DNA of 64,000 bases from the NCBI GenBank assembly GCA_963665095.1, contig OY762069.1, positions 3,648,001 to 3,712,000 of the forward strand. The letters are read 5' to 3'. How positions within the stretch are numbered: position 1 is the stretch's first letter; the number at the start of each line of letters is the position of its first letter. Positions 32,368 to 49,949 of the stretch are shown here, one piece after another. The position numbers and the translations under genes are program-made. This DNA is from an uncultured Desulfobacter sp. GTDB taxonomy: Bacteria > Desulfobacterota > Desulfobacteria > Desulfobacterales > Desulfobacteraceae. The notes below the pieces were generated by a model, which was not told the DNA's origin, searched no databases, and was given only the letters and a program-made list of their open reading frames with translations.

Positions 32368-32426
32368 GGGTTGTTCTCCGTGTTATCCTGAGTATGTTGC
32401 AAAAAATAGTGGGGAAATAATTGCCT

Positions 32427-34867
32427 CTATTTCCAATCCCCGGTCACTTGAAATGCAGCCCAATAAAAAGGATGATTAAATTTTGTATTGGATGATTTCT
32501 GGTTGATGGACATGCCCCGATTTATCAGGTTTTGCGTATCTGTCTGTATGCCTAAAAGGGATAGCTGAGCTAATTGAAGTGCTTTGGTCGGCCGCTGACC
32601 CGTCAACAGGTGTTCATAAAAGTTAATCATCAGCAAGGATGTGGCCTCATCGGAAACCTTCCAGAGAGAGGACATCAAAGCTGGTGTACCCGCATAGAGC
32701 ATACCCCGGGTAAGGCCGACCACCTCATCCCCGACACTGATTTCACCAATTCCGGTTTCACAGGCTGACATAGTGACAAAACGAGCGTTCAGGGCAACTT
32801 TCATTATTTCCCAGGCTTCAAGCCGGCCATCCGTATGATTGTCCCTGGCCAACAGCATTGCACTGCGACTCGGGCTTTGCCGGTTAAACTCACCATGGCA
32901 GGCCAAATGTACAACATCTGCCCGGGGGGCTTGTTCTATAAACGCAGATTCTGTGGCATCCGAACCTGTCAGTATTGTTACTTTGGGATTGCTTTTACCC
33001 TTAAAAAACAGGGCACCTAACTGGTTGGCCTCTTGTGCCGCCCCCGGAAGGGCCCACTGATCCTCCGTCATACCCGGTAGTGTTACCGAAAGATCCGGAT
33101 TTCCAAAAGCCAGAAAGCTGTCAATGGGGCGGCCTGTTCTTTCCCTGCAAAAGGGTAAGATTCCGGCTGCCGGCAGAATTGAAATTTCAGACCGTTCAAT
33201 CAGCCATCCCTGACCGTCATGCAGGGAGGTGAACGGCAGGGTGTGCAATGGCCCGTGGGGAACGATGACCACGCGCCGGGGCAGCCCTTCAGGAAAGGCA
33301 TCCCCGAACAAGGCTTTGTATAGGGCCCGGGCTTTGGGACTGGGATCACCGGTACCGGTGCAGATACTCTTACGAAGCTCAGCAACCATGGCTGAAATTC
33401 TGCGCTCCGGCTGCGCAATGTGATGCACTTGAAGGCCGGAGGTATTGCCCACAAACATCAGCCCCTGATTTTCATTAAGCATAAATTCCACCAGGGTAAC
33501 ATTATCGAAGTAGGGCTTCATCGTGTTCCAGGAGGGGGACTGGGCTGTGACAAAAGAGGCCAGTTCCTTATCACTGGAGGTTAATGCATCCTGGGCGTTT
33601 TGAACACTTCGATTAGCCGCCTCCCGGCTTTCAAGGCTCTTTTTACCACCGTCGGCAAAAACAGATCCAATGGAAGATTTAAATACATTTTCGGTCCGGA
33701 AAGCCAGATAACTGGCCTCCACTTCCTTGTTTTTTCCCAGGGTTTTGCCTTCCAGCAAATCTGCCAGAGCCCGGGCTTTTGATTTTTCAACGATGGCAAA
33801 TGCCTTTTCTATTTCACCATGCATGGCATACCTGATGGCCAATCGTTCATAAGGACGGCCACGGTCTTTTAAAAAATGCCGCTTATAGGAATCTTTCTGC
33901 AAGGCGCTTCGTTCGGTTTCAGCGATGCTGACTGCCTTTTCATAGTGTTCAACAGCCGTTTCAGGCTGTCCCAGATTTTCATAACAATCACCCAGGGCAT
34001 CATGGGCAGTCCATAGGTACTCTCCGCCCAGGGCCGGTGATTGGTGTATGGTTTGGCAATAGGCTTCCAGCTGGGAAGCCGCAGCTTGATAGCTGCCTTC
34101 GAGATAATCTGCATAACCAAAGTAAAATTGTTTTTTGGTTCTGAAATAAAGATTGCTCTCGTTCATTATGCTTCCGGGCACATAAAAGGCTTCTGTGCCG
34201 CCGACAGCCAATATCATGGGAAATGCCACAACCGTCAGGGCAGCCACGCCCGTATCCCCTTTAAAATCTTTTTGATCAATATGTTCTGCGTATTTTCTCA
34301 GCAACCTCGGATCTTTCAGGTGAACGCCAAGGTTCAGCAACCCGGCGTTATAGCCTGGCTTGGCCCACTGCCACTGCTTTTTACTCATGCACCGTTCCAT
34401 CTTCGCCATTGAGATACGGATATCTTCCAGTGCCCTGAAGGTTTTAAGGTCATCGCCATCCAGCAACGATCGCTGCACCATCAGCGGGTGAGCCACCCCA
34501 TAGCTGTAGGAATACCGGCAATCCTCTAGAGTGGGATCGCTGCCATCCGTCATATCCATGGAGTACTCCATGGCTGACAAGGCTGTTTTCAACGCCCTGT
34601 CAAACCGTTCGATTTCACCGGTTTTCAAGGCCGATTCCAGATACGGTGTGATAACTTCCGGCATATTACGAAAATCAATTTGTATTACAATATCCGACCA
34701 GCCCCCTTTCACACTCCTGCTTTCCTGGTCCTTGAGAACATTTTCAATGTGGGCAATGAATGCATCACCGATCAGAAATACTTTTTCATGGTTTCCCAAT
34801 TGTGTATACACCCGCATCAAAGCATCTATCTCCTCTTGCCGCAGCTTTAAGGCCATTTGTTCGGGGG
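32427..34867 (-). pseudogene. TPR-CHAT (caspase-like) lipoprotein, 3' part, interrupted by IS110
   Basis: TPR segments, EKSKARAL, IVPHGPLHTLPF, catalytic HLACHG and MSACETG, HPFYWAAF. Confidence 0.88.
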
Positions 34868-34979
34868 TCACCCATTAAAGGCCGGGTCAAGAGAAAAAAC
34901 ACCTCCCCGTGAAAAAAATTCCTTTTTTTCTTGACCCTCGCACTATTTGTAATTTTTCAAAATCGACAGCTTTTTTCCC

Positions 34980-35285
34980 TGTCCGCGCCTGTTATTTCGT
35001 CGTGTGGTTCACGGAAATGATCCGCACCAGTCACCCATCAGGTTCAAGGCAGATGTGTACCAGGCAAAATGCGTGGTACACGGCCCCTGGTCCGTTCGGA
35101 CCCCAGAAAATCTTCAGTGCCGTACCGTGGCTAATTGTTTGTTTTCAAATCTTATGGTTGTTAACCAACCCCTTACAGGCTCACGGCACAGGCGAATCAG
35201 GATATAAAAAACTGTGTGGCTGCAGCAGTTGCCAATCAAACCTAATGGTTCATACCAACCCCTGAAATGGTTCGCTGCTGCAGCC
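34980..35285 (-). ncRNA. Predicted bridge/seek RNA of the IS110 element
   Basis: Stems GGCTGCAGCAG/CTGCTGCAGCC, GTGCCGT/ACGGCAC and GTGTACCA/TGGTACAC; 8-nt matches to the target flank and to the element end. Boundaries approximate. Confidence 0.7.
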
Positions 35286-35290
35286 TTAAT

Positions 35291-36307
35291 TTACCGGCAA
35301 AAAAGACCTACCTCATCAAAGGGGATCTGATCCCGCATGATATAGTAGGATGCACGGCAAATTTTGTTGCTCAACGCTTTGGTGGCTACAATCCCGTTTC
35401 GTTTGGCATTTTTGCGCTGGAAAAATTTTCTTGCTTCCGGGCAATACCTTTTTGCAAAATTTGCAGCTTCTACATATGCCCAGGCAAGATACTTGTTTCC
35501 GTTTTTTGTATTATTTCTTCCTTTCTTCTTCCCATTGGATATTTTTTCACTTTTAACACAACGGCAATAGGAAGAATAGCATCCTACCTTGGCAAACCGT
35601 TTGATCTCGCCAACCTCAAGCATGATAGTCAGTGCCAGAATATTGCCGACACCCGGTATTGTTTTAAGCATTTCAAAGGCTTTTTTCATTTTAACCTGGG
35701 AAAGCGCCTGTCGTTCAATCGCTTTGATGGAATTACTCAGGTCCTTGATGGTCCTGATCTGAAGTGCTGCCATGAACCCCTGATTTGAATCAAACATTTG
35801 ATGAACCTCAGGTTCCTTCAATTTTTTGATCGCATTACCTGACATTTTTATGCCAAGTTGCCTTGTTACCATGCTTTGTAAACTCAAAATTTGAGTTGTT
35901 CTTTGCTGCACAAACAAAAGTCTTCGGCGTAAAATATCCCGGACAGCTCTTTCTTCCCGAGGATAAATGTAGCCTTCCGGCAGAATGTTTAACCGCCTCA
36001 TGTGTGCGAGCCAGAAGGAGTCCCACTTGTCGTCGGTATACTTGAGCCCTTCGTACTGTTGAATGGCTGACGGGTTGGCCAGATGAACTCTATAGCCGTT
36101 TTCCTCAAGGCCATCAACCAGCCAGTACCAGTTGTAGGTTGATTCTACCACGATACCTTCCAGATTTTGTCTGAACGGTTCCAGAATTTGAAGTACATCC
36201 GGCAAATTATTGTCAAGCCGTTTTCCAAATAACCGTTTGTCATTTTCATCAATGATTCCTACGTAATTATTGCTTGAATGCAAATCAATTCCAGCGTAGA
36301 GTTTCAT
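35291..36307 (-). CDS. IS110-family recombinase/transposase
   Basis: DEDD domain (YAGIDLH, VVES, TDDKWDS), TIPGVG, ISNGK, GNKYL. Confidence 0.95.
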   Translation of the reverse strand: MKLYAGIDLHSSNNYVGIIDENDKRLFGKRLDNNLPDVLQILEPFRQNLEGIVVESTYNWYWLVDGLEENGYRVHLANPSAIQQYEGLKYTDDKWDSFWLAHMRRLNILPEGYIYPREERAVRDILRRRLLFVQQRTTQILSLQSMVTRQLGIKMSGNAIKKLKEPEVHQMFDSNQGFMAALQIRTIKDLSNSIKAIERQALSQVKMKKAFEMLKTIPGVGNILALTIMLEVGEIKRFAKVGCYSSYCRCVKSEKISNGKKKGRNNTKNGNKYLAWAYVEAANFAKRYCPEARKFFQRKNAKRNGIVATKALSNKICRASYYIMRDQIPFDEVGLFCR

Positions 36308-36489
36308 TTGGCACCTCCTAAATCCAAAGTGTTCTTGTTGAACTGGTACTATAGCAATCGTTGCTATAGTTAGGGAGGTGTCACTTTTTTTTCTAATTTG
36401 CGAGGACCTGCCATCATACGATTCTATGAAAAATATCTGTGATGACAGGTAGCTTTCGTTCCTGCTTTCGCCTGGCCTTTATATGATTA

Positions 36490-36673
36490 TCAAACCTTTT
36501 TCCATCTTTTTGGCCAGGGTCAAAGCCTCGGTCCATTTTCCGCTCATGGCCAATTCCTGGCTCATGGCTTTTAGCCGCTGTCCACGCATTTGCCCCCCGG
36601 CGCAGCCGGTAATAAGCATCAGGGCGGCCCCAAAAGAGGCTATTGAAAACAGGCAGTATCTAAAATTGTTCAT
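36490..36673 (-). pseudogene. TPR-CHAT lipoprotein, 5' part
   Basis: Lipoprotein signal LMLITG-C; joins in frame to 34867 (KGLTPEQM) when the IS is removed. Confidence 0.78.
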
Positions 36674-36703
36674 GAAGTCCTCCAGCACAGCATACTTTGA
36701 ACT

Positions 36704-37669
36704 CTAATTTTGAAGTGCAGCATAACGGGTCACCAACTTATGACCGGCTCGTTCCATGGCATTCAGCAACTTTGCTGAAAATTCGATGTTATCACAGAAA
36801 GATACAACCACAGCCCCGCTGGCCGTATCAATCATATCCAGATTGATAAGAATGGTATCGCCTTGCAGAAGAATGGATCCACCAACCATTTTGGAGACAC
36901 CCAGTGCCTTTCCCATCTCCATCAGGCAGGATTGATTACAGGGGATTACCGGTTTATTTTGCTGCTCCGAGAGGAGCAGGTTCATCTCCTTAACACCAAG
37001 AATATTAAAGTAAGCGGTTCTTTCCAGCACCGAACGAAAATAGTTACTGAGAATAACTTCTTCTGTTTTAGACAGCCCTGCAGCGCCAATATCTGCCACG
37101 GCAATCATTTCAGGTGAATCCATGGGTTTGGGTAAATTTTCAGCCAGAGCCGTTTTGTAGCCTGAGGACGACAAGGTGGTCTCTTTGTGCTTCAATTCCC
37201 TTTCGATCTCCCTGAAAACCTCGCGAACCATCATTTCGGTGGTACCCATGTACACCAAGGCCACATTTGAGGTCCCGCCGGCCAGTTTCTCGCCGGTTTT
37301 CCGGTCTGATATTTTCACCCGGAACCGGTTGAGCTTCAAACCTAGAAGGTCTCTATTGCAATCATACCTGAACATGGCGATCATTTCTGCATCCTGCTCT
37401 GATGTGACAAATCTAAAACCCATTTTTTCCAACTCATCCACCACAAAGGGCTTTAAATTCATTTTGTCGTCATGGGAATATTTCATAAAAATTGTTTTAT
37501 TGAAAAATTGAAATATCTCTGATGCCACCTCCGTTGAGACAGTGGCGCCGGCAGCAGACACGCTTGAACTCGTGAGAAATATCATGCCAGCAACGCACAG
37601 GATCATGTATTTGGCAAAATAGAAAAGCCTGTCTACAGTTCGAAATTTTGTTTCAGCCGGATGAATCAT
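36704..37669 (-). CDS. Hypothetical exported two-domain protein (CsgG/TolB-N-like fold possible)
   Basis: Long ORF with N-terminal hydrophobic segment; CNQSCLMEMGKALGVSKMVGGSI; directly upstream of the CHAT gene. Confidence 0.65.
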   Translation of the reverse strand: MIHPAETKFRTVDRLFYFAKYMILCVAGMIFLTSSSVSAAGATVSTEVASEIFQFFNKTIFMKYSHDDKMNLKPFVVDELEKMGFRFVTSEQDAEMIAMFRYDCNRDLLGLKLNRFRVKISDRKTGEKLAGGTSNVALVYMGTTEMMVREVFREIERELKHKETTLSSSGYKTALAENLPKPMDSPEMIAVADIGAAGLSKTEEVILSNYFRSVLERTAYFNILGVKEMNLLLSEQQNKPVIPCNQSCLMEMGKALGVSKMVGGSILLQGDTILINLDMIDTASGAVVVSFCDNIEFSAKLLNAMERAGHKLVTRYAALQN

Positions 37670-38316
37670 AGGATCCTCTTCAAGAAAATGGCGCATTAAA
37701 AGCAAAAAAATTGCTTTTTGTTAAAAACTTAAAAAAAAGGGACAGGAACTTGATAGTTTAAAAAATATTGAAAACTTTTTATATAAATAGTGCCTGGACG
37801 AAAACCCCGTGTGACTTGCTTTATCAGAAGGAAATAATTGAAGTCAAGCCTCAAATCCACCTCCTAATTTGAGGATGCCCCTGTGCATATCATTTTCAGG
37901 GTGGCGCAAATCCGGGGGTAATGGCCGCCTGAATCAAGCCCTGCTTCACCCCCTTGAAAATGTGCTCAGGGATTTAAAGCGACGCCTGGAGATCCACCGT
38001 ACAAACATCACAGCAAAAATTCGATGATTTTGTATATTTAATATAATTTTTTGGACAATTAATTTATTATCCACATATTTTTTGATTTTTTATGAGTTTG
38101 ATGCAATTTTTTATTGACTCGCTTTATTTTAAGTATATAAAGTATTATATATGTAACTGATGCCGAATGAATAATACCCCGGCAATCTGCCATTATCTCC
38201 GGCATTGCAAAAATCACGGCCCTGTCCGATTTCCAATAGTCGGTCAGATCCTCAAAAACAGGCATGAACGCGGTCTAACGGCGTCTGGTGGTTCATGCAG
38301 ATAAAAAGGAGACTAA

Positions 38317-39165
38317 ATGGATACCTATTACATCAATGGCGAATTTGTACCCGAAGACAAAGCCGTTCTCAGCGTAAAGGATATTACCGTCCTGCGGGGA
38401 TTCGGTGTTTTTGACTTCCTCATCACCTATAACAAACGCCCGTTCCGCCTGGAAAAGCATGTGGCACGCCTTGAAAATTCCGCCTCTCACATCGGACTGA
38501 AACTGAACCATACCAATGCTGAGATCTGCGATATTGTCAGACAGAGCATTGAAAAAAATCCCCAGCATGACGAGTATAACATCCGTATTGTCTATACCGG
38601 CGGCATCAGCCCGGACGGTGTTACACCCCAGGGTAACGGCGAACTGATGGTCATGGTTACGGGCAGGCATAAACTGCCCGACTGGTGGTACACAAAAGGG
38701 GCCAAGGTTATCACCGTTGACATGGAACGGTTCATCCCTGAAGCCAAAAGCACCAATTACCTGTCCGCAGTATTTGCCCAGCAGAAAGCCTTAAGTCAGG
38801 ATGCCATTGAAGCCATTTACAAAGACCGGGAGAACCGCCTTCTTGAAGGCACTACCACCAACATTTTCTGCTTCAAGGATGGCAAGCTGATCACCCCGCC
38901 TGCAGATATTCTTCCCGGCGTCACCCGGGGTGCGGTCCTGGAACAGCTGGAAAACAAATATGACATTGTCCTGGACTACATTCCTTATTCAAATTTGGCT
39001 GATATGGATGAAGTATTCATTACCGCGTCCAACAAAGAGATTGTGCCCATTGTCCAGGTGGACGATATCACCATTGCAGACGGCAAACCCGGAAAGAATA
39101 CGTTAGACCTGATGGCAGACTGGAAAAAATACACCACTGCCTATGGACTCGGAGAGGCAGACTGA
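38317..39165 (+). CDS. Class IV PLP aminotransferase (D-amino-acid/branched-chain type)
   Basis: RGFGVFD, HVARL, AKSTNY, EGTTTNIF, ILPGVTR, DEVFIT. Confidence 0.9.
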   Translation: MDTYYINGEFVPEDKAVLSVKDITVLRGFGVFDFLITYNKRPFRLEKHVARLENSASHIGLKLNHTNAEICDIVRQSIEKNPQHDEYNIRIVYTGGISPDGVTPQGNGELMVMVTGRHKLPDWWYTKGAKVITVDMERFIPEAKSTNYLSAVFAQQKALSQDAIEAIYKDRENRLLEGTTTNIFCFKDGKLITPPADILPGVTRGAVLEQLENKYDIVLDYIPYSNLADMDEVFITASNKEIVPIVQVDDITIADGKPGKNTLDLMADWKKYTTAYGLGEAD

Positions 39166-40334
39166 TGAAGCAGACAGAGACCACCGCACTTTTACCCCAG
39201 AGCCGGGTGAACGTGGATCTGTCCGCCTTTGCCCACAATATAAAAACACTTAAAGCCCGTATCCCGTCCACCACCCGGTTCTGTGCGGTGGTAAAGGCCA
39301 ATGCCTACGGCCATGGTGCGATCCAGTCTGCCAAAACCGCCACGGAGAACGGGGCTGATTTCCTGGCTGTTGCCCGGATTTCAGAGGCAGTGACCTTAAG
39401 AGAGGCGGGCCTCACCCTGCCCATTCTTCTCCTTGGCGAAGTGCTGCCCGAACAGGTGACCTATCTGGCAACCAACGGCATCCGTGCCAGCATCGGGGAT
39501 ATTCAGACGGCCAAAGCAGTGTCCGATGCCGCCCGTGCCGCCGGCCTTAAATTGAAGGCGCACATTAAGCTTGATACCGGTATGGGACGATTAGGTTTCA
39601 TTCCGGAGGATATGGTTGCCGGAGATGGCGCTGCTTCCTGCGGCATCCGCCAGGCCGATTTGATTGCCGGCCTCAAAGGCCTGGAGGTTGAAGGGGTGTA
39701 TACCCATTTTGCCAAAGCCGATATCAGGGACAAAAACCATGTCAAAGGCCAGCTGGCCCGGTTTAACAACATGGTGTCCGTGCTGGCGGATATGGAAATC
39801 CGACCTGCCATCCGCCATGCAGCAAACTCTGCCGCCCTTCTTGAGCTGCCCGCAGCCCATTTTGATATGGTTCGTCCGGGAGTTGCCATGTACGGCATGG
39901 CCCCGTCCGACGAGGTGGACATTGAAGGCCCCGGACTGAAACCGGTTATGTCCATCTCCTCAAAAATCATTTATGTCAAAACCGTGCCTGCCCATTTTAC
40001 CGTCAGTTACGGCGCCACCCATGAAACCCAGACCACAACCACCATTGCCACAGTGCCCATCGGATATGCCGACGGCTACAGCCGGCTGTTGTCCAACAGG
40101 GGCAGGATGCTGGTAAAAGGGCAGACAGCTCCCATTGTGGGGCGGGTCACCATGGATTTTACCATGATTGATGTAGGTCATATTCCAGGGGTGGAGATCG
40201 GAGATGATGTGATGGTCATGGGTACTCAGGACGACGAATGCATCCTGGCTGACGATATCGCCGACCTCACTGGGACCATCAACTACGAGGTGACAGCGGG
40301 TCTCACCGGCCGGATGCCCCTGTCATTTATTTAA
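39165..40334 (+). CDS. alr: Alanine racemase
   Basis: AVVKANAYGHG, HIKLDTGMGRLG, HAANS, VRPG, VSYG, GYADG. Confidence 0.95.
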   Translation: MKQTETTALLPQSRVNVDLSAFAHNIKTLKARIPSTTRFCAVVKANAYGHGAIQSAKTATENGADFLAVARISEAVTLREAGLTLPILLLGEVLPEQVTYLATNGIRASIGDIQTAKAVSDAARAAGLKLKAHIKLDTGMGRLGFIPEDMVAGDGAASCGIRQADLIAGLKGLEVEGVYTHFAKADIRDKNHVKGQLARFNNMVSVLADMEIRPAIRHAANSAALLELPAAHFDMVRPGVAMYGMAPSDEVDIEGPGLKPVMSISSKIIYVKTVPAHFTVSYGATHETQTTTTIATVPIGYADGYSRLLSNRGRMLVKGQTAPIVGRVTMDFTMIDVGHIPGVEIGDDVMVMGTQDDECILADDIADLTGTINYEVTAGLTGRMPLSFI

Positions 40335-40347
40335 AAGGAGGCCTGTC

Positions 40348-41592
40348 ATGCAGGCAAAACAGGAATTTAACTTTCAGACAGGCTCGTGGTTTAAGGAGAA
40401 TGCCGCTCCCGGGGATGCGTCTGTGATCATTGCCGGAGACTGGGCGCCCATCCGGGCGTTTGCGCCATTGATCGAATCAAATCCCGAAGCCATTTACGGA
40501 AATCTTCTCCCCCTTCTCCGGGATGCAGACGCAACCCTTGTCAATCTGGAGGCCCCTTTAAGCGATATCGGCCGCGAAGTCTGTAAAAGCGGGGCTGTCT
40601 TCAAGGGAGAGACCTGCCATGTCCAGGGGCTTTCCACTGTGCCGTTCACAGCGGTCACCCTCGCCAACAACCATATGTTTGATTTTGGCGTTGAGGCGTT
40701 TCAACAGACCGCAGAGGTTCTGGAACGGCACGGTATTGCCCACACCGGTGCCGGCATGAACAAAGAAGAGGCCGAATCTCCACTGATCATGGAGGCCAAC
40801 GGCCTGAAAGTTGCCATTATCAATATCAGCGAGGGCGAAGACCTGACAGGTGCCGGCCCCGGACCGGGTGTGGCAGGCTGGGATATCAAGGGGGCAGCTG
40901 CCACCATTGCAGAACTGAAAGCAAATCAGGCAGACAGCGGTATCTGCGCTGTCATTGCCGTGGTTCATTGCGGGCTTGAGTATGTTCCCTTTGCACCGAC
41001 CTATGTCACAACTGCATTCAGGGATCTTGCCGATGCTGGTGCAGACGCGGTGATCGGCCACCACCCCCACGTCCCCCAAGGGATTTTCTTCCACAACCAC
41101 ACCCCCATCTGCTGCAGCCTGGGCAATTTTGTTTTTTACCAGCCCACCCGTTTTTTCTGGCGCAAGCTGGGATATATGGTACGCCTGCATCTGTGTGAAA
41201 ACGGGCTTAAAGGCATTGATATCCTTCCCTACCAGATTCATGACAATGGGGTGGACATGCTTTCAGGCAGTGCAAAGGAATATTTTTTCCAACGGTTTAA
41301 AGAGATCAGCGACCCTTTGTCAACGCCTAAGGGATGTGAGACAGCCTGGCAGGGATTCCTGGATTATTACGGGGTTACAGGCCTTAAAAACGAGGTCGGC
41401 ATGATCCTGAACAAACTGGACGAAACCCCCGGCAAAGGTGCGGCCATGTTCCGGAACCGCCTGACAACGGCCCAGCACTATTACCACTGGACCGATCTTT
41501 TTACCCGGATCGTTAGCAATCAGATGGGAACCAGTCCGGACTGGGCACAGAAAATTGCCGAAGAGTGGATGACAAGACAGGTGGAAATATGA
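40348..41592 (+). CDS. CapA/PGA_cap-family metallophosphoesterase-fold protein, no signal peptide
   Basis: AGD, VNLEAP, LANNHMFDFG, VHCGLE, IGHHPHV, SLGNFVF. Confidence 0.9.
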   Translation: MQAKQEFNFQTGSWFKENAAPGDASVIIAGDWAPIRAFAPLIESNPEAIYGNLLPLLRDADATLVNLEAPLSDIGREVCKSGAVFKGETCHVQGLSTVPFTAVTLANNHMFDFGVEAFQQTAEVLERHGIAHTGAGMNKEEAESPLIMEANGLKVAIINISEGEDLTGAGPGPGVAGWDIKGAAATIAELKANQADSGICAVIAVVHCGLEYVPFAPTYVTTAFRDLADAGADAVIGHHPHVPQGIFFHNHTPICCSLGNFVFYQPTRFFWRKLGYMVRLHLCENGLKGIDILPYQIHDNGVDMLSGSAKEYFFQRFKEISDPLSTPKGCETAWQGFLDYYGVTGLKNEVGMILNKLDETPGKGAAMFRNRLTTAQHYYHWTDLFTRIVSNQMGTSPDWAQKIAEEWMTRQVEI

Positions 41593-42506
41593 GCGACAGG
41601 AAACAGACTAGGTTGCTGGTGACCGATTCCGGTTTAGGCGGACTGTCCGTGTGCGCCGGTATGGCCGCAAGGCTTGCGGACGATGTCCGGTACGACCGGG
41701 TGCACCTGATTTATTTTAATGCCTGGCCTGAGCAGTATAAGGGGTACAACCACTATCCGGACCCAACCGACCGGCCCAAGGTATTTCACAATGCCCTGGA
41801 TGCCATGGCCCGATTCAACCCGGACCATATTTTCATCGCCTGTAATACGTTATCAGTGATCTACCCTTTTACCCGGTTTGCAAAACAGACGCAAATCCCT
41901 GTTACCGGCATTGTGGATTACGGGGTGGAGATGATTTTCAATGCCCTGACCCGTGATCCGGACGCATCGGCCGTAATTTTTGCCACCCCGGCCACGATCC
42001 AGGAGGAGAGTCACAAAAAAGCCCTGATCCACAAGGGCATTGATCCTGACCGGATTATCACCCAGGGATGCCTGAATCTTGCCGGAAAAATTGAGCGAAG
42101 TCCCTTCAGCGATGAGGTCGGGGACCTCATTGATGACAATGCCGCACAGGCGGCTGGCAAACTGGGCGAAAGCAGGGGGGCACAATCAAGCGGTACTGTC
42201 TACGCCGGGCTTTGCTGCACCCATTTCGGCTATCGAAAAAAGAGTTTTGAACAGGATCTGGCCCGCCATACCGGCAGGCAGGTGCAGGTTCTCAACCCCA
42301 ACGAGGCCATGACCGACGGAGCCTGCCAGGGAATTATCCCGGGCGGGACACCGCAGATATCCATTGATATTGTATCCAGAGTTACCTGGGAGCCATCCAG
42401 AATTGAGGCCTATGACCGCCTTTTGTCACCCGTGTCTGAAAGTGTGGTAACGGCCCTGAAAAATTACCGGCTGGACAGCAATCTGTTCAGCATAGACATT
42501 GATTAA
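41589..42506 (+). CDS. Glutamate racemase-like Asp/Glu racemase
   Basis: DSGLGGLSV, IACNT, CCTHF (two-Cys racemase). Start overlaps the upstream stop (ATGA). Confidence 0.85.
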   Translation: MSDRKQTRLLVTDSGLGGLSVCAGMAARLADDVRYDRVHLIYFNAWPEQYKGYNHYPDPTDRPKVFHNALDAMARFNPDHIFIACNTLSVIYPFTRFAKQTQIPVTGIVDYGVEMIFNALTRDPDASAVIFATPATIQEESHKKALIHKGIDPDRIITQGCLNLAGKIERSPFSDEVGDLIDDNAAQAAGKLGESRGAQSSGTVYAGLCCTHFGYRKKSFEQDLARHTGRQVQVLNPNEAMTDGACQGIIPGGTPQISIDIVSRVTWEPSRIEAYDRLLSPVSESVVTALKNYRLDSNLFSIDID

Positions 42507-42518
42507 ATGAGGGGAAAA

Positions 42519-43508
42519 ATGAGCCGAATTTTACTGATTACCGGTCCGGGCGGAGATGCCCAGGGCTGGGGGAATATGGCTGTAACCGAAGAGATGGCAA
42601 AGGCCATTAACGCATCCGGCAAATCTGCTGAGATTGCATCCGTGTCAAATATGGACGAATTGATCAAAGAGCTTTCTTCGCGTAAGTTCGACCTGATCTG
42701 GAGCGCTTTGTACCATGTCACGGAAAATGAAGCCACCATTGGTATGGGAGATAGCGGGGAAGACTGGGTGGCCGATGTTCTGGATAAACGCCAGATTCCC
42801 TATATCGGCCCGGATGCCGCCACCATGAAGGCCCTGATACACAAAACCACCACCCACAATATCATGGATAAGGCAGGCGTCCCCGTGCCCTACCATTACC
42901 AGATTGCCCCGGGAGAGGCCCTGCCGGACCTGGTTTTCCCTGCTTTTGTGAAACCCAGTTATGAAAGCAGGTCCGTGGGCATCAATGACAACAGTGTGGT
43001 AAATACCCCTGAGGAACTGGCAGCCCAGGTCCGGTTTATCCATGAAAACTATGACCAGCCCGCCCTGGTGGAAGAGTACCTGCCGGGCCAGGAGTATACG
43101 GTATTAATGCTGGGAAACGGAGAATATCAGGAATTTCTGCCGGGCATGGTCACGGTGGACCCCAAACTTTTAGGCAAATACCCAATCTTAAAGGCCGAAC
43201 TTCGCGGGGTGGGCGCCACCAAAATCAAACCGGTGGGAGCGTTATCCGAAAAAACCATCGACGCCACGGCCAAGGCCATGGAAGCCCTGAACTGCCTGGA
43301 TCATGTCAGGGCGGATATGCGCCTGGACAGCCAGGGGAATGTAAAAATCATTGAGGTGAACGGCATTCCGGGCCTCAAGCCCGTTAAAAGCTGGAGCCCC
43401 CAATTGTACACCCTGCATCATGCTTCAGAAAAAGGGGAAATGGAAGATTACCGCGCCCTGATTGACCACATTGTGACTTCCGCACTGGCCCGGTACGGCA
43501 TTGCCTGA
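42519..43508 (+). CDS. Divergent D-Ala-D-Ala-ligase-family ATP-grasp enzyme
   Basis: IPYIG, FVKPSYESRSVGI, LVEEYLPGQEYTV, RADMR, IEVNGIPGL. Confidence 0.85.
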   Translation: MSRILLITGPGGDAQGWGNMAVTEEMAKAINASGKSAEIASVSNMDELIKELSSRKFDLIWSALYHVTENEATIGMGDSGEDWVADVLDKRQIPYIGPDAATMKALIHKTTTHNIMDKAGVPVPYHYQIAPGEALPDLVFPAFVKPSYESRSVGINDNSVVNTPEELAAQVRFIHENYDQPALVEEYLPGQEYTVLMLGNGEYQEFLPGMVTVDPKLLGKYPILKAELRGVGATKIKPVGALSEKTIDATAKAMEALNCLDHVRADMRLDSQGNVKIIEVNGIPGLKPVKSWSPQLYTLHHASEKGEMEDYRALIDHIVTSALARYGIA

Positions 43509-43515
43509 CCCAATG

Positions 43516-43640
43516 GTGTTTGAACGATACGTCGCCCACCTGCTGCGCTTCAGGGAAATCTGTAATCCTCACAACCCCATGGGTGCTCCGGTTACAAATT
43601 TCCCTGCCCCCTGCATCCGGGCAACTTTTCGCCCAAACAC
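43516..43640. repeat. 125-bp palindromic intergenic repeat, copy 2 (inverted relative to copy 1)
   Basis: Its reverse complement aligns end to end with 24006-24130. Confidence 0.82.
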
Positions 43641-43702
43641 AGGACTTTTGCTTGGGCGTGATTTTAATTTCCGGGAAGTTCAGGAATTAAAAACAAAACG
43701 GC

Positions 43703-44578
43703 TTAAACCAGACTGCTCAGAGTATTTTCAAAGGCTGCTTTAACCATGTCGGTGATCATCTGATTCACTTTCTTGGAAGCTGTTTCCAGCAGTTCGGACA
43801 AGGAGGGTTCTGTCTCATCGGCAACCGCCTCAGACTCCTGGGTCTCTTCCTTTTCCGCCAGGCTGCTCATATAGTGATCAAATAGTTCGCTCAAGGGCTG
43901 GGTGGCCCGGGCCAGCGCTTCTTCTTCCTGCTCCTCAAGCAGCTCGGCCAGCTGTTCCATCAGAGACGTTTCCAGATCTCCGGCAGCGTCATCCGTGGTA
44001 TCTGTTTCATCGGTATCATCGTTTACAGCATCCAGAAGCGATGAGGTCATATCCTGACCCAGTGCCCCGGCACCGGAGGTCCGTTCTTCACTGTACATGG
44101 CATAGGACCGCTCCACCGTGATATCGGCCTGGTAGGTGGAGATGGAGTCGTAATACCCCATGGTCAGGGCCTTGGCCAGTGCCCCCTGCATATCCCCTTC
44201 CATCATTTCACCGATAATGCCGTCAACCCCGGATACAATGGACTCAATATCTTCAAGCTCCTCTTCGCTTAAGTCCCCTTCCACGGTAAATGTAAAGGTT
44301 TCTCCGGAACTTAGAGTAATCTCTCGCACATTATAGGAGGAGGCCGTATACCCGTCTTCATCATAAAGCACACCCTGGCTGCTGTATTCATAGGCATCCA
44401 GCTCTGAATACCGACTGGTGGACAGGGTGACCACATCCCCCTCCCGGGTCTGGATGGTCAGGCCCGCATCAAGGCTTGAATAGGAATTGACGTAAAGCTG
44501 GCTTGAAGCGGTACTGGCGTTTATCAATGCGGCCTGATTCTGCAGACCATTGGAGGTGACTTGCGGTATGCTGGTCAT
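43703..44578 (-). CDS. Highly acidic hypothetical protein
   Basis: 291-aa ORF with RBS; LTIQTREGDVVTLS and FTVEGDLSEEEL; very Asp/Glu-rich. Confidence 0.75.
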   Translation of the reverse strand: MTSIPQVTSNGLQNQAALINASTASSQLYVNSYSSLDAGLTIQTREGDVVTLSTSRYSELDAYEYSSQGVLYDEDGYTASSYNVREITLSSGETFTFTVEGDLSEEELEDIESIVSGVDGIIGEMMEGDMQGALAKALTMGYYDSISTYQADITVERSYAMYSEERTSGAGALGQDMTSSLLDAVNDDTDETDTTDDAAGDLETSLMEQLAELLEEQEEEALARATQPLSELFDHYMSSLAEKEETQESEAVADETEPSLSELLETASKKVNQMITDMVKAAFENTLSSLV

Positions 44579-44790
44579 TATCCCTCTCCTAACTTAAGGT
44601 TGTTCACGATAGCCTTTTAATCCTGTTTATGATTATCGGTTGCGGTCGTAAAAATCTGAATACTTTTAAACTTTTTTTTTAAACCGGCCTGCCCTATAAT
44701 TTAAAAAATTATGTATTCTGCTTTCCCTAAGCGACCTATTACAAATGACAGGAAAATTCAGTTTTTACATATACTTACAGTGGATCGGAA

Positions 44791-47700
44791 ATGAGCCTAC
44801 GAAAAAAAACATTGATCACCATTAGCATTACCCTGACAATTATGGTTTTTTTCATCTATCTTTTCACCAGCGTCATCCTGCTTGACGGATACAAAGGCCT
44901 AGAGGGACAGGATATTCTTCATGATGCAACCCAGGCTGAAAAAATAATCATCGCCGAAATGTGTCAACTGAAAAGCGTTGTTGGTGACTGGGCGCCATGG
45001 GATGATACATATCAGTTTATTCAAAATGAAAATCCGGCTTATGTCATAAACAATTTAATGGATTCAGTGTTAATCAACCTGAATATCAGTTTTCTGATTT
45101 TCATAAATACTAACGGGGAAATAATCCATTGCAGCCATGTAAACCTTGAAAGCGGCAATGGGAAGAGTTGCCCGGCCGCGCTGAGGGATTATATCACCGC
45201 CACGCCATCACTGTTAAGAGATGAACAGCATCTCAACACTCTGGCAGGTCTGGCGCTGCTGCCGGAAAATCCGGTTTTTCTGGCAGCAGCGCCCATTCTC
45301 ACGAGTCAATTTAAAGGCCCTGTTATGGGCACACTTGTGGCAGGACGATATCTGAATGAAACGGAAATTAAAAAAATCGCTGACAAATTGAATCTTTGCA
45401 TTTCGTTTCACCGTCTGGACGATCCGGAACTACCCGATGAAATCAAGCGTGGCGGCCAGTGGCAGGCCTCTTCTGACACCGATACGGTTATAAAGCATTA
45501 TGAAGATACCATTGCCGCATATACCATGCTGACAGATTACAATGACCGCCCGGCGCTCATATTCCGGATTGAAAAAATACGCAGCATATACAGGCAGGGA
45601 AAGACCAGCATGTATTCCTTAATTTTTTCCATGCTGGCCATCAGCGTTATGTTTATCATTGTTGTGATGCTGCTTCTTGAACGTACAATTCTGTCAAGGA
45701 TCCTGCAACTGAGCCATGAAATTAAACATATTGAGACCACCGGAAATCTGCTGGACCGGACAACTGTCAGCGGCAAGGATGAACTGGCTGATTTATCCGT
45801 GCAGATTAATCGTATGCTTGAATCTCTAAGGGTGAGTACCGAAAGGGACCTGGTTATTCTTGATTCAATTGAGGATGCCTATTTTGAATTTGATCTTGAG
45901 GGAAATCTTGTCTTTTTTAATCAATATGCAGCCACACTTATGAAAGACAGAATCACAGACTTAAAAAATTTAAATTATCGACATTTAATAGATAACGATA
46001 CATTGGATCAGGTAGATGATGCCTTTAACCAACTGTATAAAACCGGTGAGCCCATTAAAGGCCTTGAGACCCAGCTTATTTTTAAAAACGGAGATAAAAA
46101 ACTGCTGGAATCAAGGGTGTCCCTGATTAAAGACACCGAGGGGAAAAGAACCGGATTTCGTGGAATAGCCAGAGATATCACCGAGCGTAAAAATGCTGAA
46201 GAGCGGCTGAAAAAAAGTGAACAGAGACTGTCTCTTGCCCTGGAGGTCAGCCTTGCAGGACTGTGGGAAGCCAACCTGGCAACTAAAGAGTTCTCGTTTG
46301 ACAAAAAACTGTTCCATGCGTTTGGTTATTTCACCGAAGACTTCCCAAAAGAGATAACCGACATTATCAACTTTATTGATCCCCAGGACGCCCCGAGAGC
46401 CCGGAGATGTTTTTTAACATTTATCAAAGGCGTCTCCTCCTTTTACAGAGATGATTTCCAGGTGCTCACAAAAACCGGTGAAAAAAGGTGGATACATAAC
46501 CGGGCCAGAGCCATTGAGCATTTTGACGACAACAGGCCCAAAATGATTATTGGAACAGCCATTGACATAACAGATTTGAAACGGGCGGAAAAAGAACTCA
46601 GGGACAATGAAGAGCGGTACCGCACCATCCTGGAAAACCAGAAAATTGGTTATTTTGAAACAGATCTCTCCGGCAATTTTCTTTTTTTTAACAATGCCCT
46701 GTGCGCCCTTACGGAATATGATTCATACCAGTTGCAGGGTCTGAATTATAATGCCTATACAGATGCAGAAACAGCCCAAAAGCTGGAGGCCCTGTATAAA
46801 ACAATTTTTCAAACCGGTAAGCCGCTGTCAGGTATCGAATATTCAGTGGTCACAAAAAATAACCGCCAGATCACCCTTGAAACATCTATTTCCCTGATAA
46901 AGGATCCCAATGAAAATCCAGTTGGTTTCTGTGGATTGGCCATGGATATTACGGACAAAAAAAATGCCGAAATCGCAAAAAGAAACGCTGAGAGGGAAAA
47001 TCGACAGGCCCATAAAATGGAAGCAATTGGGACACTGGCCGGCGGAATTGCCCATGATTTCAATAATATTTTGACCAGCATTTTCGGATATGCCCAGTTG
47101 GCAAAAAATGCGATCCATATCCCTGCCAAGGCAGAGGGACATATTGACCAGATTATGAAAGGAGCCGGCAGGGCAGCGGGTTTAATTCAGCAGATACTGA
47201 CATTTTCAAGGCAAAAAGAGCAGGAAAAAATCCTGATCAATATCGCCATGGTGGTCAAAGAGGCGGTTCATCTGATGAGAGCATCAATTCCAACCACCAT
47301 TGATATACAGGAAAATATCTTTTCAAAGGCAAATGTATCCACAGATCCCACCCGGATTCATCAGCTGATCATGAATCTGTGTACAAATGCATACCATGCC
47401 ATGCGTAACCAGGGCGGGGTATTGACAGTTGAGCTGTCTGATGTGTACCTGCCGGATTATCAAAGCTATCCGGAGATCAACCTGCCGGCCGGGGATTATG
47501 TTCAAATCACTGTAAAAGATACCGGTTGCGGCATGGATGAAGATACATTGCAAAAGGTATTCGACCCGTACTTTACCACAAAGCCCATCGGGGAAGGCAC
47601 AGGGCTTGGACTGTCCATCGTATACGGTATTGTTGAGGATCATGACGGCCTGATAAAAGCATACAGTTCCGAGAATCAGGGTGCTGTTTTCAGAATATTT

Positions 47701-48144
47701 CTTCCTGTGGCAAAAGAGACTGCCACCCTGAAAGAAGCCGGCCCCAAACTTGTTACCCCTGGAAATAATGAAACAGTGATGCTGGTTGATGATGAAGAAG
47801 GCATCCTTTTGTCGGTCCAGCAAAATCTGCAAAATCATGGATATAGGGTCAGGGCATTCAGCAATCCGGAAGAGGCATTAAAAGCGTTTAAAGAAAATCC
47901 GTCACTGGTTGATCTGCTCATAACCGACATGACAATGCCTGGCATGACCGGGGATCTTCTGGCAAAGGATGTCTTAAAAATTCGGCCTGGAATGCCTGTG
48001 ATTCTATGCACCGGATACAGTGAAAAAATATCCGACGCCAAAGCTTTTAAGATGGGTGTCAGGCGGTTCCTCCAGAAGCCGTTGGGCATCAATAAACTGT
48101 TACAGATCGTTCGTGAAGTCCTGGATGAACCTTCAAAATTTTAA
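44791..48144 (+). CDS. Hybrid sensor histidine kinase (CHASE4-HAMP-3xPAS-HisKA-HATPase-REC)
   Basis: DWAPWDDTY, GKDELADL, PAS/PAC repeats, AGGIAHDFNN, GTGLGL, LITDMTMP. Confidence 0.93.
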   Translation: MSLRKKTLITISITLTIMVFFIYLFTSVILLDGYKGLEGQDILHDATQAEKIIIAEMCQLKSVVGDWAPWDDTYQFIQNENPAYVINNLMDSVLINLNISFLIFINTNGEIIHCSHVNLESGNGKSCPAALRDYITATPSLLRDEQHLNTLAGLALLPENPVFLAAAPILTSQFKGPVMGTLVAGRYLNETEIKKIADKLNLCISFHRLDDPELPDEIKRGGQWQASSDTDTVIKHYEDTIAAYTMLTDYNDRPALIFRIEKIRSIYRQGKTSMYSLIFSMLAISVMFIIVVMLLLERTILSRILQLSHEIKHIETTGNLLDRTTVSGKDELADLSVQINRMLESLRVSTERDLVILDSIEDAYFEFDLEGNLVFFNQYAATLMKDRITDLKNLNYRHLIDNDTLDQVDDAFNQLYKTGEPIKGLETQLIFKNGDKKLLESRVSLIKDTEGKRTGFRGIARDITERKNAEERLKKSEQRLSLALEVSLAGLWEANLATKEFSFDKKLFHAFGYFTEDFPKEITDIINFIDPQDAPRARRCFLTFIKGVSSFYRDDFQVLTKTGEKRWIHNRARAIEHFDDNRPKMIIGTAIDITDLKRAEKELRDNEERYRTILENQKIGYFETDLSGNFLFFNNALCALTEYDSYQLQGLNYNAYTDAETAQKLEALYKTIFQTGKPLSGIEYSVVTKNNRQITLETSISLIKDPNENPVGFCGLAMDITDKKNAEIAKRNAERENRQAHKMEAIGTLAGGIAHDFNNILTSIFGYAQLAKNAIHIPAKAEGHIDQIMKGAGRAAGLIQQILTFSRQKEQEKILINIAMVVKEAVHLMRASIPTTIDIQENIFSKANVSTDPTRIHQLIMNLCTNAYHAMRNQGGVLTVELSDVYLPDYQSYPEINLPAGDYVQITVKDTGCGMDEDTLQKVFDPYFTTKPIGEGTGLGLSIVYGIVEDHDGLIKAYSSENQGAVFRIFLPVAKETATLKEAGPKLVTPGNNETVMLVDDEEGILLSVQQNLQNHGYRVRAFSNPEEALKAFKENPSLVDLLITDMTMPGMTGDLLAKDVLKIRPGMPVILCTGYSEKISDAKAFKMGVRRFLQKPLGINKLLQIVREVLDEPSKF

Positions 48145-48265
48145 AGGTCAATAATTTTTACAGTCAATAACACTGACAGTCATCTCATCCTGCTATATTT
48201 TAATAAAAATTAAATGCCAGGGTCCACGAAGTCGGGCCCTGGTTCAACTTTTTTAGGAAGATGAA

Positions 48266-48751
48266 ATGACGGAAGATTTCAAATCCAAGGTCGCTTTTAT
48301 TGTCGAGACCGATGGTCTGTTAAAATATTATCTGGAGTCGGTAATTATAAAAGACATTAAATCCCAAATGGAGGACGATACCTTCAGGCGCTTAAATACC
48401 AACCATATCCATGCCTCCCTGGTTTTAAAAACCATTGCACCCTGCTCTTTGAAAACATTTGCAGCAACCCTGAGGCTGTCCAAAGCAGCGGCATCTGCTC
48501 TGGTAGACCGGATGGTCAAGGCGGGGGTCGTTCGCCGTGAGGCCAACCCTGAAAACAGGCGGGAGGTTTTATTGACTGTCAGCCCTGAATTCGCAGCCCA
48601 TACCGAATATGTCCGTTCCCAATTGACGCTATGGTTTGAAAGCCTTGCAACCACCATAGGCATGGAGACGTTTGAAAAATGGCATACCGTCATGCGCACT
48701 ATTAACGAGGTGATTCAAAAGGAGATTAATTCAGCTGATGCAGCATCTTAA
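48266..48751 (+). CDS. MarR-family regulator
   Basis: LSKAAASALVDRMVKAGVVRREANPENRREV. Confidence 0.88.
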   Translation: MTEDFKSKVAFIVETDGLLKYYLESVIIKDIKSQMEDDTFRRLNTNHIHASLVLKTIAPCSLKTFAATLRLSKAAASALVDRMVKAGVVRREANPENRREVLLTVSPEFAAHTEYVRSQLTLWFESLATTIGMETFEKWHTVMRTINEVIQKEINSADAAS

Positions 48752-49949
48752 TCCAGGCAGCTCTGTTCTACAGAATACCAGTACCACATGGTATTCTAAA
48801 ATATTTTTACCTGTGTTACTTGTGATCATGGGTGCTTATCCGCCCCTGTCAACAGATATGTACCTGCCGGCTCTGCCAGATATTGCCAGGTCATTCAACA
48901 CGTCCGAAGCCATGGTCAATCTGACCCTTGTCCTTTTTTTTGTTTTTTTTGCATTTTCAACCCTGATCTGGGGACCGGTATCGGATAAATTCGGCCGCCG
49001 TCCGGCACTGATTGCAGGCATTGGCCTTTTCAGCCTGGCCAGTGCCGGATGCGTCTGGTCGGATTCCATCAGGCAGCTGATCTTCTGGAGAACGCTCCAG
49101 GCTTTAGGGGCAGGAGCGCCTGTTACTATTTCCATCGCCATTGTTCAGGATACCTATACCGGCACTGCCAAAAAGAAAATCCTGGCAACCCTCACGGCCC
49201 TGATGATGATTGCTCCGGTTGCCGCACCAACCTTAGGGGCTGTCATCATAACTTTTGCCCAGTGGCGTATGGTGTTTGTTATACTTCTGCTTCTTGGTCT
49301 GGTATCCCTGGCCGGATGCTTTGTTATCAGTGAAACCATACCTGAAAAGAGTGAGGCGTCCGCTTTCCAGGCCTTTGGCAGCCTTTTTCAGGTACTCAAT
49401 GACCCCGTTTTTCGAAAATCCCTGGCTGCATTTTCTCTGCCTGCCCTGTATGCGCTCGGTTTTGTCGGCGGCTCAGCCCTTATCTTCATGACTGAATTTG
49501 GCGTTTCCTCCTCCTATTTCAGCATCTGTTTTGCCACCAATGCTATGTTTGCCATCCTCGGGGCCGCTATTTATGTCCCTTTACTGCGATGGATTTCCAA
49601 CGAGAAAATGATTTTGCTCTCTTTTCTGTCCATTTCAGTCAGCGGTTGTCTTATCCTTTGTTTCGGCAGTATCAGCGCCCTTGTATTTCTGATCTGTGTG
49701 CTCCCGGGAACAACCCTGACAGCATTGCTCAGGCCGCTCAGTGTGGACCTGATGATGGACTCCGGTGGCCCGAAATCCGGCGCCATCGCCTCAATGATCA
49801 ATTTCTTTTTCACCATTATCGGAAGCATCGGGATGCAGATTCTGGCCATGGACTGGGACAGCCGGGTCAAGATTTACGGAATCATGGCGATAATGACAGG
49901 GGCCGCCTGCCTGCTGATATGGGCAGAAAAAAAAAGGGCAGTCCGATAA
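48738..49949 (+). CDS. Bcr/CflA-family MFS efflux transporter
   Basis: DMYLPALP, GPVSDKFGRRP, QALG, APTLG. Confidence 0.9.
   Translation: MQHLNPGSSVLQNTSTTWYSKIFLPVLLVIMGAYPPLSTDMYLPALPDIARSFNTSEAMVNLTLVLFFVFFAFSTLIWGPVSDKFGRRPALIAGIGLFSLASAGCVWSDSIRQLIFWRTLQALGAGAPVTISIAIVQDTYTGTAKKKILATLTALMMIAPVAAPTLGAVIITFAQWRMVFVILLLLGLVSLAGCFVISETIPEKSEASAFQAFGSLFQVLNDPVFRKSLAAFSLPALYALGFVGGSALIFMTEFGVSSSYFSICFATNAMFAILGAAIYVPLLRWISNEKMILLSFLSISVSGCLILCFGSISALVFLICVLPGTTLTALLRPLSVDLMMDSGGPKSGAIASMINFFFTIIGSIGMQILAMDWDSRVKIYGIMAIMTGAACLLIWAEKKRAVR

Follow-up and report, generated by a model that had tools for sequence, protein, structure and literature searches.

A Desulfobacter operon that looks like a conserved aminotransferase-alanine racemase pair with an appended CapA-like/racemase/ligase cassette

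The 64-kb stretch of DNA analyzed here (contig OY762069.1 of an uncultured Desulfobacter sp.; the whole stretch is referred to as the window) carries an operon of five co-oriented genes. In order, they encode a class-IV (fold type IV) aminotransferase (AT4), an alanine racemase (Alr), a CapA-like protein, a divergent MurI-like racemase, and a Ddl-like ATP-grasp ligase. These genes look like two units: a housekeeping AT4-Alr pair, and an accessory cassette of three genes (the CapA-like, racemase, and ligase genes, hereafter the trio) appended to it. According to the explanation that we prefer, the pair likely supplies D-Ala and D-Glu for the cell wall, and the cassette likely makes or converts a small peptide containing D-Glu; in our estimate, this explanation has about an even chance of being correct.

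The five open reading frames (ORFs) are located on the forward strand at 38317-39165, 39165-40334, 40348-41592, 41565-42506, and 42507-43508, with overlaps or gaps of at most 13 nucleotides. The stop codon of AT4 and the start codon of Alr, as read from the DNA, share one nucleotide (TGATG), and the CapA-like gene is preceded by a 13-nucleotide gap that contains AGGAGG. The racemase ORF opens with a GTG at 41565, and an in-frame ATG at 41589 overlaps the stop codon of the CapA-like gene (ATGA, 41589-41592); because of this overlap, the ATG is the likelier start. The ligase has two start candidates, 42507 (TAAATG) and 42519; the latter has GAGGGG five nucleotides upstream, a better ribosome-binding site, and is the likelier one. 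Judged from the sequence, these junctions are those of an operon. The coordinates and the junctions thus agree with the first-pass annotation of this DNA, in which the five genes were described as co-oriented and tightly packed. The same annotation had seen no mur or dcw genes nearby, and none of the 48 non-overlapping ORFs of at least 100 amino acids scanned across the window belonged to these families.

The division into two units becomes apparent when the locus is compared within the genus. The sample consisted of 25 genomes, and the genus was taken as Desulfobacter from the nearest named relatives. The ligase was found in 17 of the 25 genomes, and the MurI-like racemase was found in the same 17; two further genomes (G008 and G019) hold remnants of the trio. 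The region around alr was inspected in four genomes that lack the trio (G002, G006, G008, and G019). In G006 and G002, AT4-Alr is followed directly by a DUF445-like gene, the same one as lies behind the ligase in the window. In G008, a CapA-like fragment (residues 91-191) remains behind AT4-Alr, and in G019, a truncated CapA-like gene remains there with nothing more of the trio. The inspected loci without the trio have the same flanks, two of them carry remnants, and therefore the three downstream genes are an accessory block that was lost, partly by decay, from a fixed site behind the conserved AT4-Alr pair. An ortholog of the ligase at E ≤ 1e-60 was present in none of 400 other genomes drawn evenly from the phylum of the window; the ligase is 82% identical to that of Desulfobacter curvatus DSM 3379. 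The first-pass annotation had proposed one dedicated five-gene module. This proposal has to be given up: AT4-Alr occurs in 23 of the 25 genus genomes with or without the trio, and includes the sole alr.

Alr (39165-40334) carries the Ala_racemase_N and Ala_racemase_C domains and matches TIGR00492 with 365.8 bits (cut-off 168); it is the sole alr above the cut-off in the source genome (6.9 Mb). Likewise, 23 of the 25 genus genomes have one alr each over the cut-off of this model, and the same 23 genomes have an AT4 ortholog (67-82% identity), which by coordinates lies beside Alr in the genus genomes compared. The two genomes from which both are absent are G001 (56% complete) and G009 (13% contamination). 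A canonical MurI over the cut-off was found in only two of the 25 genomes (212-228 bits), and eight genomes are without any MurI-like match.

AT4 (38317-39165; PF01063 (Aminotran_4), 1.6e-44) is predicted to be a D-amino-acid aminotransferase (DAAT) of the type found in Haliscomenobacter hydrossis (Halhy). The latter enzyme is described as a strict DAAT that works best with D-Glu/2-oxoglutarate, and R28, F33, R90, and a short SPDG loop in its O-pocket are described as replacing the classical carboxylate trap (PMC8401098). R27, F32, R90, and the loop GGISPDGVTP of AT4 align column for column with R28, F33, R90, and GYSPDGYTP of Halhy (chain 7p8o); R179 of Halhy is not conserved (Thr in AT4). 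The motif YxxxxF[ED]Gx[KR] of branched-chain aminotransferases (BCATs) is broken at three positions in AT4. The score of AT4 against the DAAT model TIGR01121 is 138.8 bits, which is below the cut-off of 277.45.

The other candidates for these roles were also surveyed. The source genome encodes five other class-IV aminotransferases. One AT4 paralog (about 45% identity) is present in all 25 genus genomes, and therefore the BCAT role need not fall to AT4. A Bacillus-type DAAT paralog occurs in only five of the 25 genomes, and one of its copies (G017) has an internal TAG. In six genomes (G002, G006, G008, G010, G015, and G019), AT4-Alr is present, and neither a MurI-like gene nor another DAAT candidate was found. 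From the pocket residues and this distribution, we infer that AT4 is the genus's source of D-Glu, working from the D-Ala that Alr makes. The AT4-Alr pair is thus most likely the housekeeping supply of D-Ala and D-Glu for the cell wall. Apart from the operon, another class-IV aminotransferase of the source genome (G000:C1:3988255-3993651; PF01063, 128 bits) lies about 4 kb from a weakly alr-like, fold-type-III protein dependent on pyridoxal phosphate (PLP) (39.5 bits), and this place may be a second locus related to D-amino acids.

Among the trio, the ligase (42507-43508; PF07478 (Dala_Dala_lig_C), 67.4 bits, 1.6e-18) belongs to a distinct family of Ddl-like ATP-grasp enzymes. It scores 75.4 bits against the Ddl model TIGR01205 (cut-off 245.65), and every Ddl/Van model of NCBIfam lies far below its cut-off. 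The predicted structure has a pLDDT (the predictor's per-residue confidence) of 87.3, and among the top Foldseek matches listed there are only Ddl/VanA structures (best E 2e-20, TM about 0.7). Thus, the Ddl-type fold and the catalytic Arg, Asp, Glu, and Asn are kept: R268, D270, E283, N285, and S295 are invariant in the 25 aligned rows, i.e., 24 family members and the genome's own Ddl. The N-terminal GGxSxE of Ddl is missing, and GPGGDAQGWGN and WSALYH are found instead; the omega-loop region, YGKYPILxxxLRGVG, does not align with the K-Y pair of the genome's canonical Ddl. This alignment upholds what had been noticed in the first reading, namely the absence of GGxSxE, the presence of LYH, and the lack of the usual omega loop. 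The family has its own motifs conserved across the 24 members (GGDAQGWGN, WSxLY, and YGKYPILRxxLRGVG) and its own basic residues (R155, R233, H266, and K291). In view of the roles of the corresponding residues in Ddl, the site that accepts an amino acid whose carboxylate stays free is probably retained, and that for the first D-Ala is probably remodelled.

The ligase is not the housekeeping Ddl, as had also been supposed: a canonical Ddl (304.7 bits) is encoded at 2.33 Mb in the source genome, 1.36 Mb from the operon, and a canonical Ddl was likewise found elsewhere in all five other cassette genomes tested. In the ESM Atlas, the ligase gave only clusters automatically named 'D-alanine-D-alanine ligase family', from several phyla, and these provided no functional lead.

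The racemase (41589-42506; Asp_Glu_race, 1.1e-5) scores 49.7 bits against TIGR00067, below the cut-off of 146.65, and is the only MurI-like match of any strength in the source genome. Fourteen residues are invariant among 18 cassette racemases and the two canonical MurI proteins of the genus: D14, S15, G16, G18, G19, C86, N87, T88, T134, T137, E170, C211, T212, and H213. All of them are MurI signature positions (DSGxGG, ACNT, GT..T, E170, and CTH, the two catalytic Cys residues being in ACNT and CTH). The racemase differs from MurI in the equivalent of the 'PYG' region and in the C-terminus. The first-pass annotation had considered that its idea would fail if the genome's only alr, murI, and ddl were located here and the ligase made just D-Ala-D-Ala, or if the cluster were not conserved. 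Part of this was found, since the only alr and the only MurI-like gene do lie in the operon; the rest was not, since a separate ddl exists and the cluster is conserved.

Information on the relationship between this racemase and MurI was also obtained from the Lentisphaeria. In the four genomes first tested, the cassette racemase was the only MurI-like match in every case; a canonical Ddl and a single Alr are encoded elsewhere in these four, whereas a homolog of AT4 is absent. We then used an even draw of 121 genomes from the same class (that of G041). The ligase was found in 12 of them and the racemase in 16, including all 12 ligase holders. A canonical MurI over the cut-off was found in none of the 16 racemase holders and in 38 of the 105 other genomes, although these genomes are related and not independent. 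MurD over the cut-off was found in 109 of the 121 genomes, including all 12 ligase holders.

The CapA-like protein (40348-41592) is predicted to be a cytoplasmic metalloenzyme of the PGA_cap family, to which it belongs with 174.5 bits (PF09587, 3.7e-51; cut-off 27). As the first-pass annotation had stated, it has no signal peptide: its N-terminus is not hydrophobic, and the best 19-residue Kyte-Doolittle mean within the first 40 residues is 0.65. Its sequence matches in the PDB are MslH only, and it matches the MslH model NF038314 at 1.1e-17 (63.6 bits; cut-off 700). The predicted structure (pLDDT 92.8) also gave MslH as the top Foldseek match, along the entire protein (E 3.5e-20, 433 columns), the next being a nucleotidase (1.9e-9). 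The MslH report gives His88/Asp91 and His295/Asp11 as catalytic dyads and Glu44/Asn87 as metal ligands, and describes the enzyme as epimerising the C-terminal residue of a peptide (PMC10406935). D31, E68, N108, H109, D112, and H241 of the CapA-like protein align with these dyads and ligands and are invariant in 19 homologs; the equivalents of MslH His259/His261 are not resolved by the alignment.

The usual partners of the known relatives were not found. PgsB (TIGR04012) gave no match in the whole genome, with Bacillus subtilis as a positive control; neither a PgsC-like gene nor lasso-peptide genes were among the window ORFs scanned, and PgsC was not searched genome-wide. When the CapA-like protein was modelled together with the racemase (alignments A2 and A3), the score was 0.00 against a mark of 0.32, which gives no evidence either way. 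As a separate observation, five Lentisphaeria genomes (G044 and G046-G049) have 3 to 7 PGA_cap matches each (28-37% identity to the window's protein), the cassette copy being counted, which is an unusual expansion of soluble CapA proteins.

Related loci were collected by a pattern scan with one genome per species, which provided 49 loci, and their trio content was examined by tblastn. The CapA-like, racemase-like, and ligase genes occur together in 35 of the 49 loci, from three phyla, so that the arrangement is not due to chance. These 35 loci consist of 8 from Desulfobacterota (Desulfobacter, Desulfobacula, Desulfobacterium, and metagenome-assembled genomes (MAGs)), 1 from a Leptospirales MAG, and 26 from Lentisphaeria/Victivallales MAGs; of the 14 other loci, two consist of very short contigs. 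This result, together with the 17 ligase-positive genomes of the genus, answers the synteny check suggested at first reading: the cluster is conserved. In Lentisphaeria genomes where the ligase seemed to stand alone, the CapA-like and racemase genes were found as an abutting pair elsewhere in all five genomes tested. Across the phyla, the ligase is the best conserved member (50-57% identity), and the racemase is 28-37% identical. The ligase tree places the sequences from Desulfobacteraceae and Leptospirales in a single clade (support 98/99), which is separate from the groups of Lentisphaerota. The distribution of the cassette is patchy and extends to distant gut bacteria.

In 8 of the 49 loci, the trio has AT4 and Alr with it; one of these is the Leptospirales locus (L035:2319-11736), where Alr is the genome's only alr. 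The latter locus has eight co-oriented genes, encoding Amidohydro_3, a PF00144 beta-lactamase-family protein, the ligase, an N-formylglutamate amidohydrolase (FGase), AT4, Alr, the CapA-like protein, and the racemase. The racemase appears to be split into two ORFs there, and a canonical MurI is encoded elsewhere in that genome. To characterize the neighbours, all ORFs of the 49 loci were clustered, and the family names were taken from the few members scanned. One cluster is located downstream of the ligase in 15 of the 49 loci, and its two scanned members are Peptidase_C26 proteins (the gamma-glutamyl-hydrolase family). Another is located upstream in 13 loci, and its one scanned member is Amidohydro_3 (best NCBIfam match NF006560, 150 bits; cut-off 340). 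A third lies beside the ligase in 6 loci, and its two scanned members belong to the FGase family. The families of the scanned members include enzymes that cleave N-acyl or gamma-glutamyl amides. No recurring transporter was seen beside the cassette among the 49 loci clustered.

Based on these results, the chemistry of D-Ala and D-Glu stands at the centre of the cluster, as had been supposed from the outset, and the following course of reactions can be proposed. Alr would make D-Ala, and AT4, as a Halhy-type enzyme, would likely convert D-Ala and 2-oxoglutarate to D-Glu. In the cassette, the racemase would form D-Glu from L-Glu. The ligase would then, at the expense of ATP, activate a carboxylate as the acyl phosphate and join it to an amino acid that keeps its free carboxylate; the substrates are likely the D-Glu made by the racemase and another small amino acid, for which the repeated linkage to Alr makes D-Ala the best guess. 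The CapA-like enzyme may act on the product at its free C-terminal residue, by an MslH-like, metal-dependent epimerisation, a role proposed by analogy. The ligase product may be cleaved in other lineages by a hydrolase of the C26, FGase, or Amidohydro_3 family.

Several points weigh against this explanation. The best NCBIfam and PDB sequence matches of AT4 are archaeal-type BCATs (top model NF006185, 190.7; cut-off 363), and it is only the pocket residues that point to a DAAT. Furthermore, a Bacillus-type DAAT is also encoded in the source genome (G000:C1:1162473-1163360; TIGR01121, 267.1 bits; cut-off 277.45), and therefore AT4 is not the sole possible source of D-Glu there. The remodelling of the ligase presupposes that GGxSxE and the omega-loop Lys-Tyr pair hold the first D-Ala in Ddl. 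For the CapA-like protein, the role is suggested by one characterized relative with 18% identity. The Lentisphaeria pattern fits a racemase standing in for MurI, and this fit is weakened by the relatedness of the genomes and by the 65 of the 121 that have no MurI-like match at E ≤ 1e-5, since genomes without a canonical MurI are common there. A hydrolase is absent from the window's own cassette, and therefore 'make and turn over' does not describe the locus as it stands; an FGase homolog was not found genome-wide either, in a search with one protein query and no positive control. Finally, the observations on all five proteins concern gene content, conservation, retained motifs, and folds, and every substrate named for them is a prediction from these.

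Four rival explanations were weighed, and are discussed in the order of their weight. The heaviest of them is that the cluster serves the salvage or catabolism of D-amino-acid peptides such as cell-wall fragments: the hydrolases would free D-Glu and D-Ala, and the racemases and the transaminase, whose reactions are reversible, would return both to the L-pool. This would explain why, in other lineages, the trio is flanked by gene clusters whose representatives are amide hydrolases (C26, FGase, and Amidohydro_3, with PF00144 in the Leptospirales locus). However, the best-conserved member is a ligase that consumes ATP and is not needed for catabolism, no transporter recurs beside the cassette, and the window's copy is without a hydrolase; salvage is therefore held to be unlikely. 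The whole operon may alternatively be housekeeping for the wall, with Alr providing D-Ala, the transaminase and the MurI-like protein providing D-Glu, the ligase serving as a second, divergent D-Ala-D-Ala ligase, and the CapA-like protein being a passenger. The location here of the genome's only alr and only MurI-like gene, the Ddl fold and catalytic residues kept in the ligase, and the apparent replacement of MurI by the racemase in Lentisphaeria are all in keeping with it. This is nevertheless quite unlikely in view of the canonical Ddl encoded elsewhere, both here and in the five other cassette genomes tested, the absence of the trio from 8 of the 25 genus genomes, and the ligase, which lacks the Ddl N-terminal motif and falls far below the Ddl cut-off; a constant neighbour of the racemase is also a poor fit to a passenger.

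The two remaining rivals are improbable. In one, the trio would synthesize a gamma-glutamyl oligomer or polymer inside the cell, with the ligase in the place of PgsB and the CapA-like protein in the part of CapA/PgsA. The combination of a PGA_cap member with a glutamate racemase would suit this, as would the C26 gamma-glutamyl-hydrolase-family genes downstream of the ligase in 15 of the 49 loci, but the CapA-like protein lacks a membrane anchor, the search of the genome for PgsB gave nothing, and every top structural relative listed for the ligase makes a dipeptide or a depsipeptide. In the other, which has a similarly slim chance, an L-amino acid would first be attached by the ligase, then inverted as the C-terminal residue by the CapA-like protein, and finally released in its D-form by a hydrolase, following the logic of MurD2/MurL. 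MslH provides a precedent for the inversion of a C-terminal residue (PMC10406935), and a report on MurD2/MurL provides one for epimerisation after ligation in the supply of D-Glu (PMC8788868); hydrolase-family genes do accompany the trio. On the other hand, a cassette racemase with all the MurI catalytic motifs makes such an indirect route redundant, and the hydrolase is again missing from the window's copy.

A further possibility has only a small chance of being right: the CapA-like protein, the racemase, and the ligase may form a hitherto unknown early branch of wall-precursor synthesis. In lineages without MurI, D-Glu would then reach the wall within a dipeptide made beforehand, and a soluble epimerase of the CapA family would set the C-terminal residue of this dipeptide. 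If this is true, it would be the first general biochemical role for the long-enigmatic CapA/PgsA family outside lasso peptides.

The surroundings of the operon were also examined. A non-coding, AT-rich leader (37706-38316, forward strand) lies 5' of the operon and contains promoter-like hexamers at 38052-38143, which are consensus matches only. The number of promoter-like sites was 13 against 8.1 expected in shuffled sequences, a weak and uninformative excess, and that of terminator-like sites was 8 against 9.0, also uninformative. The terminator scan gave no terminator-like site directly behind the ligase stop codon, and no Rfam family was found at E ≤ 0.1 within 30000-50000. A horizontal-transfer island, considered from base composition, was rejected: the five operon genes and both conserved flanking genes have G+C contents of 0.49-0.56, and the low-GC stretches here are an IS110 element, a hypothetical gene, and a histidine kinase gene.

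Relative to other genus genomes, the window has an insert of about 5.3 kb at 32427-37705, which contains a TPR-CHAT protein (814 amino acids, with a weak Csx29-like match), an IS110-family transposase, and a 333-amino-acid protein without a family. The glucokinase gene, located at 31375-32367 here, is about 1 kb or less from AT4 in other genus genomes. At 6311-12514, a sigma-54 activator is divergent from two class-III aminotransferases and an Amidohydro_3 protein (563 amino acids), forming a separate cluster for amine/amide utilisation. The Amidohydro_3 gene (10823-12514) was considered as the missing hydrolase and rejected, its similarity to the cassette-linked amidohydrolase being marginal (best segment 27 bits). 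At 24130-27438, a fusion protein of 1102 amino acids combines a B12-binding domain, a MeaB-like GTPase, and a methylmalonyl-CoA-mutase domain (an IcmF-like architecture), and its gene adjoins thiolase and 3-hydroxyacyl-CoA dehydrogenase genes.

If the preferred explanation is correct, the textbook glutamate racemase would be dispensed with in wall synthesis by a whole genus of sulfate reducers and possibly by many Lentisphaeria, and their D-Glu would come from a Halhy-type transaminase or from a divergent racemase clade missed by annotation cut-offs. The product of a distinct Ddl-like ligase family would be a D-amino-acid peptide other than D-Ala-D-Ala, which would bear on the annotation of Ddl hits and on the D-amino-acid metabolism of anaerobes. 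A soluble, expressible CapA-family enzyme with defined partners would allow a direct test of CapA-family function, and the natural presence and absence of the trio within one genus provides ready-made comparison strains.

No description of this operon was found in the literature searched, with subscription journals outside its coverage, which is in line with the first-pass annotation. The parts come from known superfamilies: by sequence comparison, the trio proteins fall below the curated thresholds of Ddl, MurI, and MslH and yet keep the catalytic residues. The resemblance to Ddl and the Van clusters (VanC with the VanT racemase and the VanXY hydrolase) lies in the Ddl-fold ATP-grasp ligase, which has the catalytic Arg/Asp/Glu/Asn and the C-terminal Ser, and in its gene being located beside that of a racemase and, in other lineages, also beside hydrolase-family genes. 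The differences are that the trio ligase is below all the model cut-offs, with GGxSxE and the omega-loop K-Y replaced, that the trio racemase is MurI-like and not PLP-dependent, and that the neighbouring hydrolases are C26, FGase, and Amidohydro_3 proteins, none of those scanned matching the VanX-type family. VanH, VanX, and VanRS gave no match among the neighbouring window ORFs in general scans, which were not aimed at these families.

MslH, the C-terminal Trp epimerase of a lasso peptide, ranks first for the CapA-like protein in both the sequence and the structure comparison and shares with it the His/Asp dyads, the Glu/Asn ligands, solubility, and a length of about 415-440 amino acids; the identity is nevertheless 18%, and the CapA-like protein is encoded together with a racemase and a ligase, with no lasso-peptide genes in the window scan. 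CapBCA/PgsBCA also include a PGA_cap member, a family that the CapA-like protein matches well above the Pfam cut-off, and are likewise linked to glutamate racemisation. In contrast to these systems, no PgsB was found in the genome, no PgsC-like protein was among the scanned window ORFs, and the CapA-like protein has no membrane anchor.

In Enterococcus faecium, the ATP-grasp D-aspartate ligase Aslfm is reportedly encoded next to the aspartate racemase Racfm, which supplies its D-amino acid. This system likewise places an ATP-grasp ligase beside an Asp/Glu-family racemase; here, however, the ligase is Ddl-like, the racemase has MurI motifs, and the CapA-like protein is a constant third member. 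The route by Alr and a DAAT (Bacillus Dat and the DAAT of H. hydrossis) is similar in that Alr and a fold-type-IV transaminase stand side by side, in a genus mostly without MurI and with the Halhy pocket residues, and differs in that AT4 is below the DAAT model cut-offs and appears closest overall to archaeal-type BCATs. In logic, the operon comes closest to the Van-type clusters of ligase, racemase, and hydrolase genes and to the route by which Alr and Dat provide D-Glu. The present locus adds a clean series of presence and absence within one genus with remnants of decay, the assignment of a Halhy-type transaminase, and a constant pairing of the CapA-like gene with the racemase gene, which persists when the ligase gene lies apart from them.

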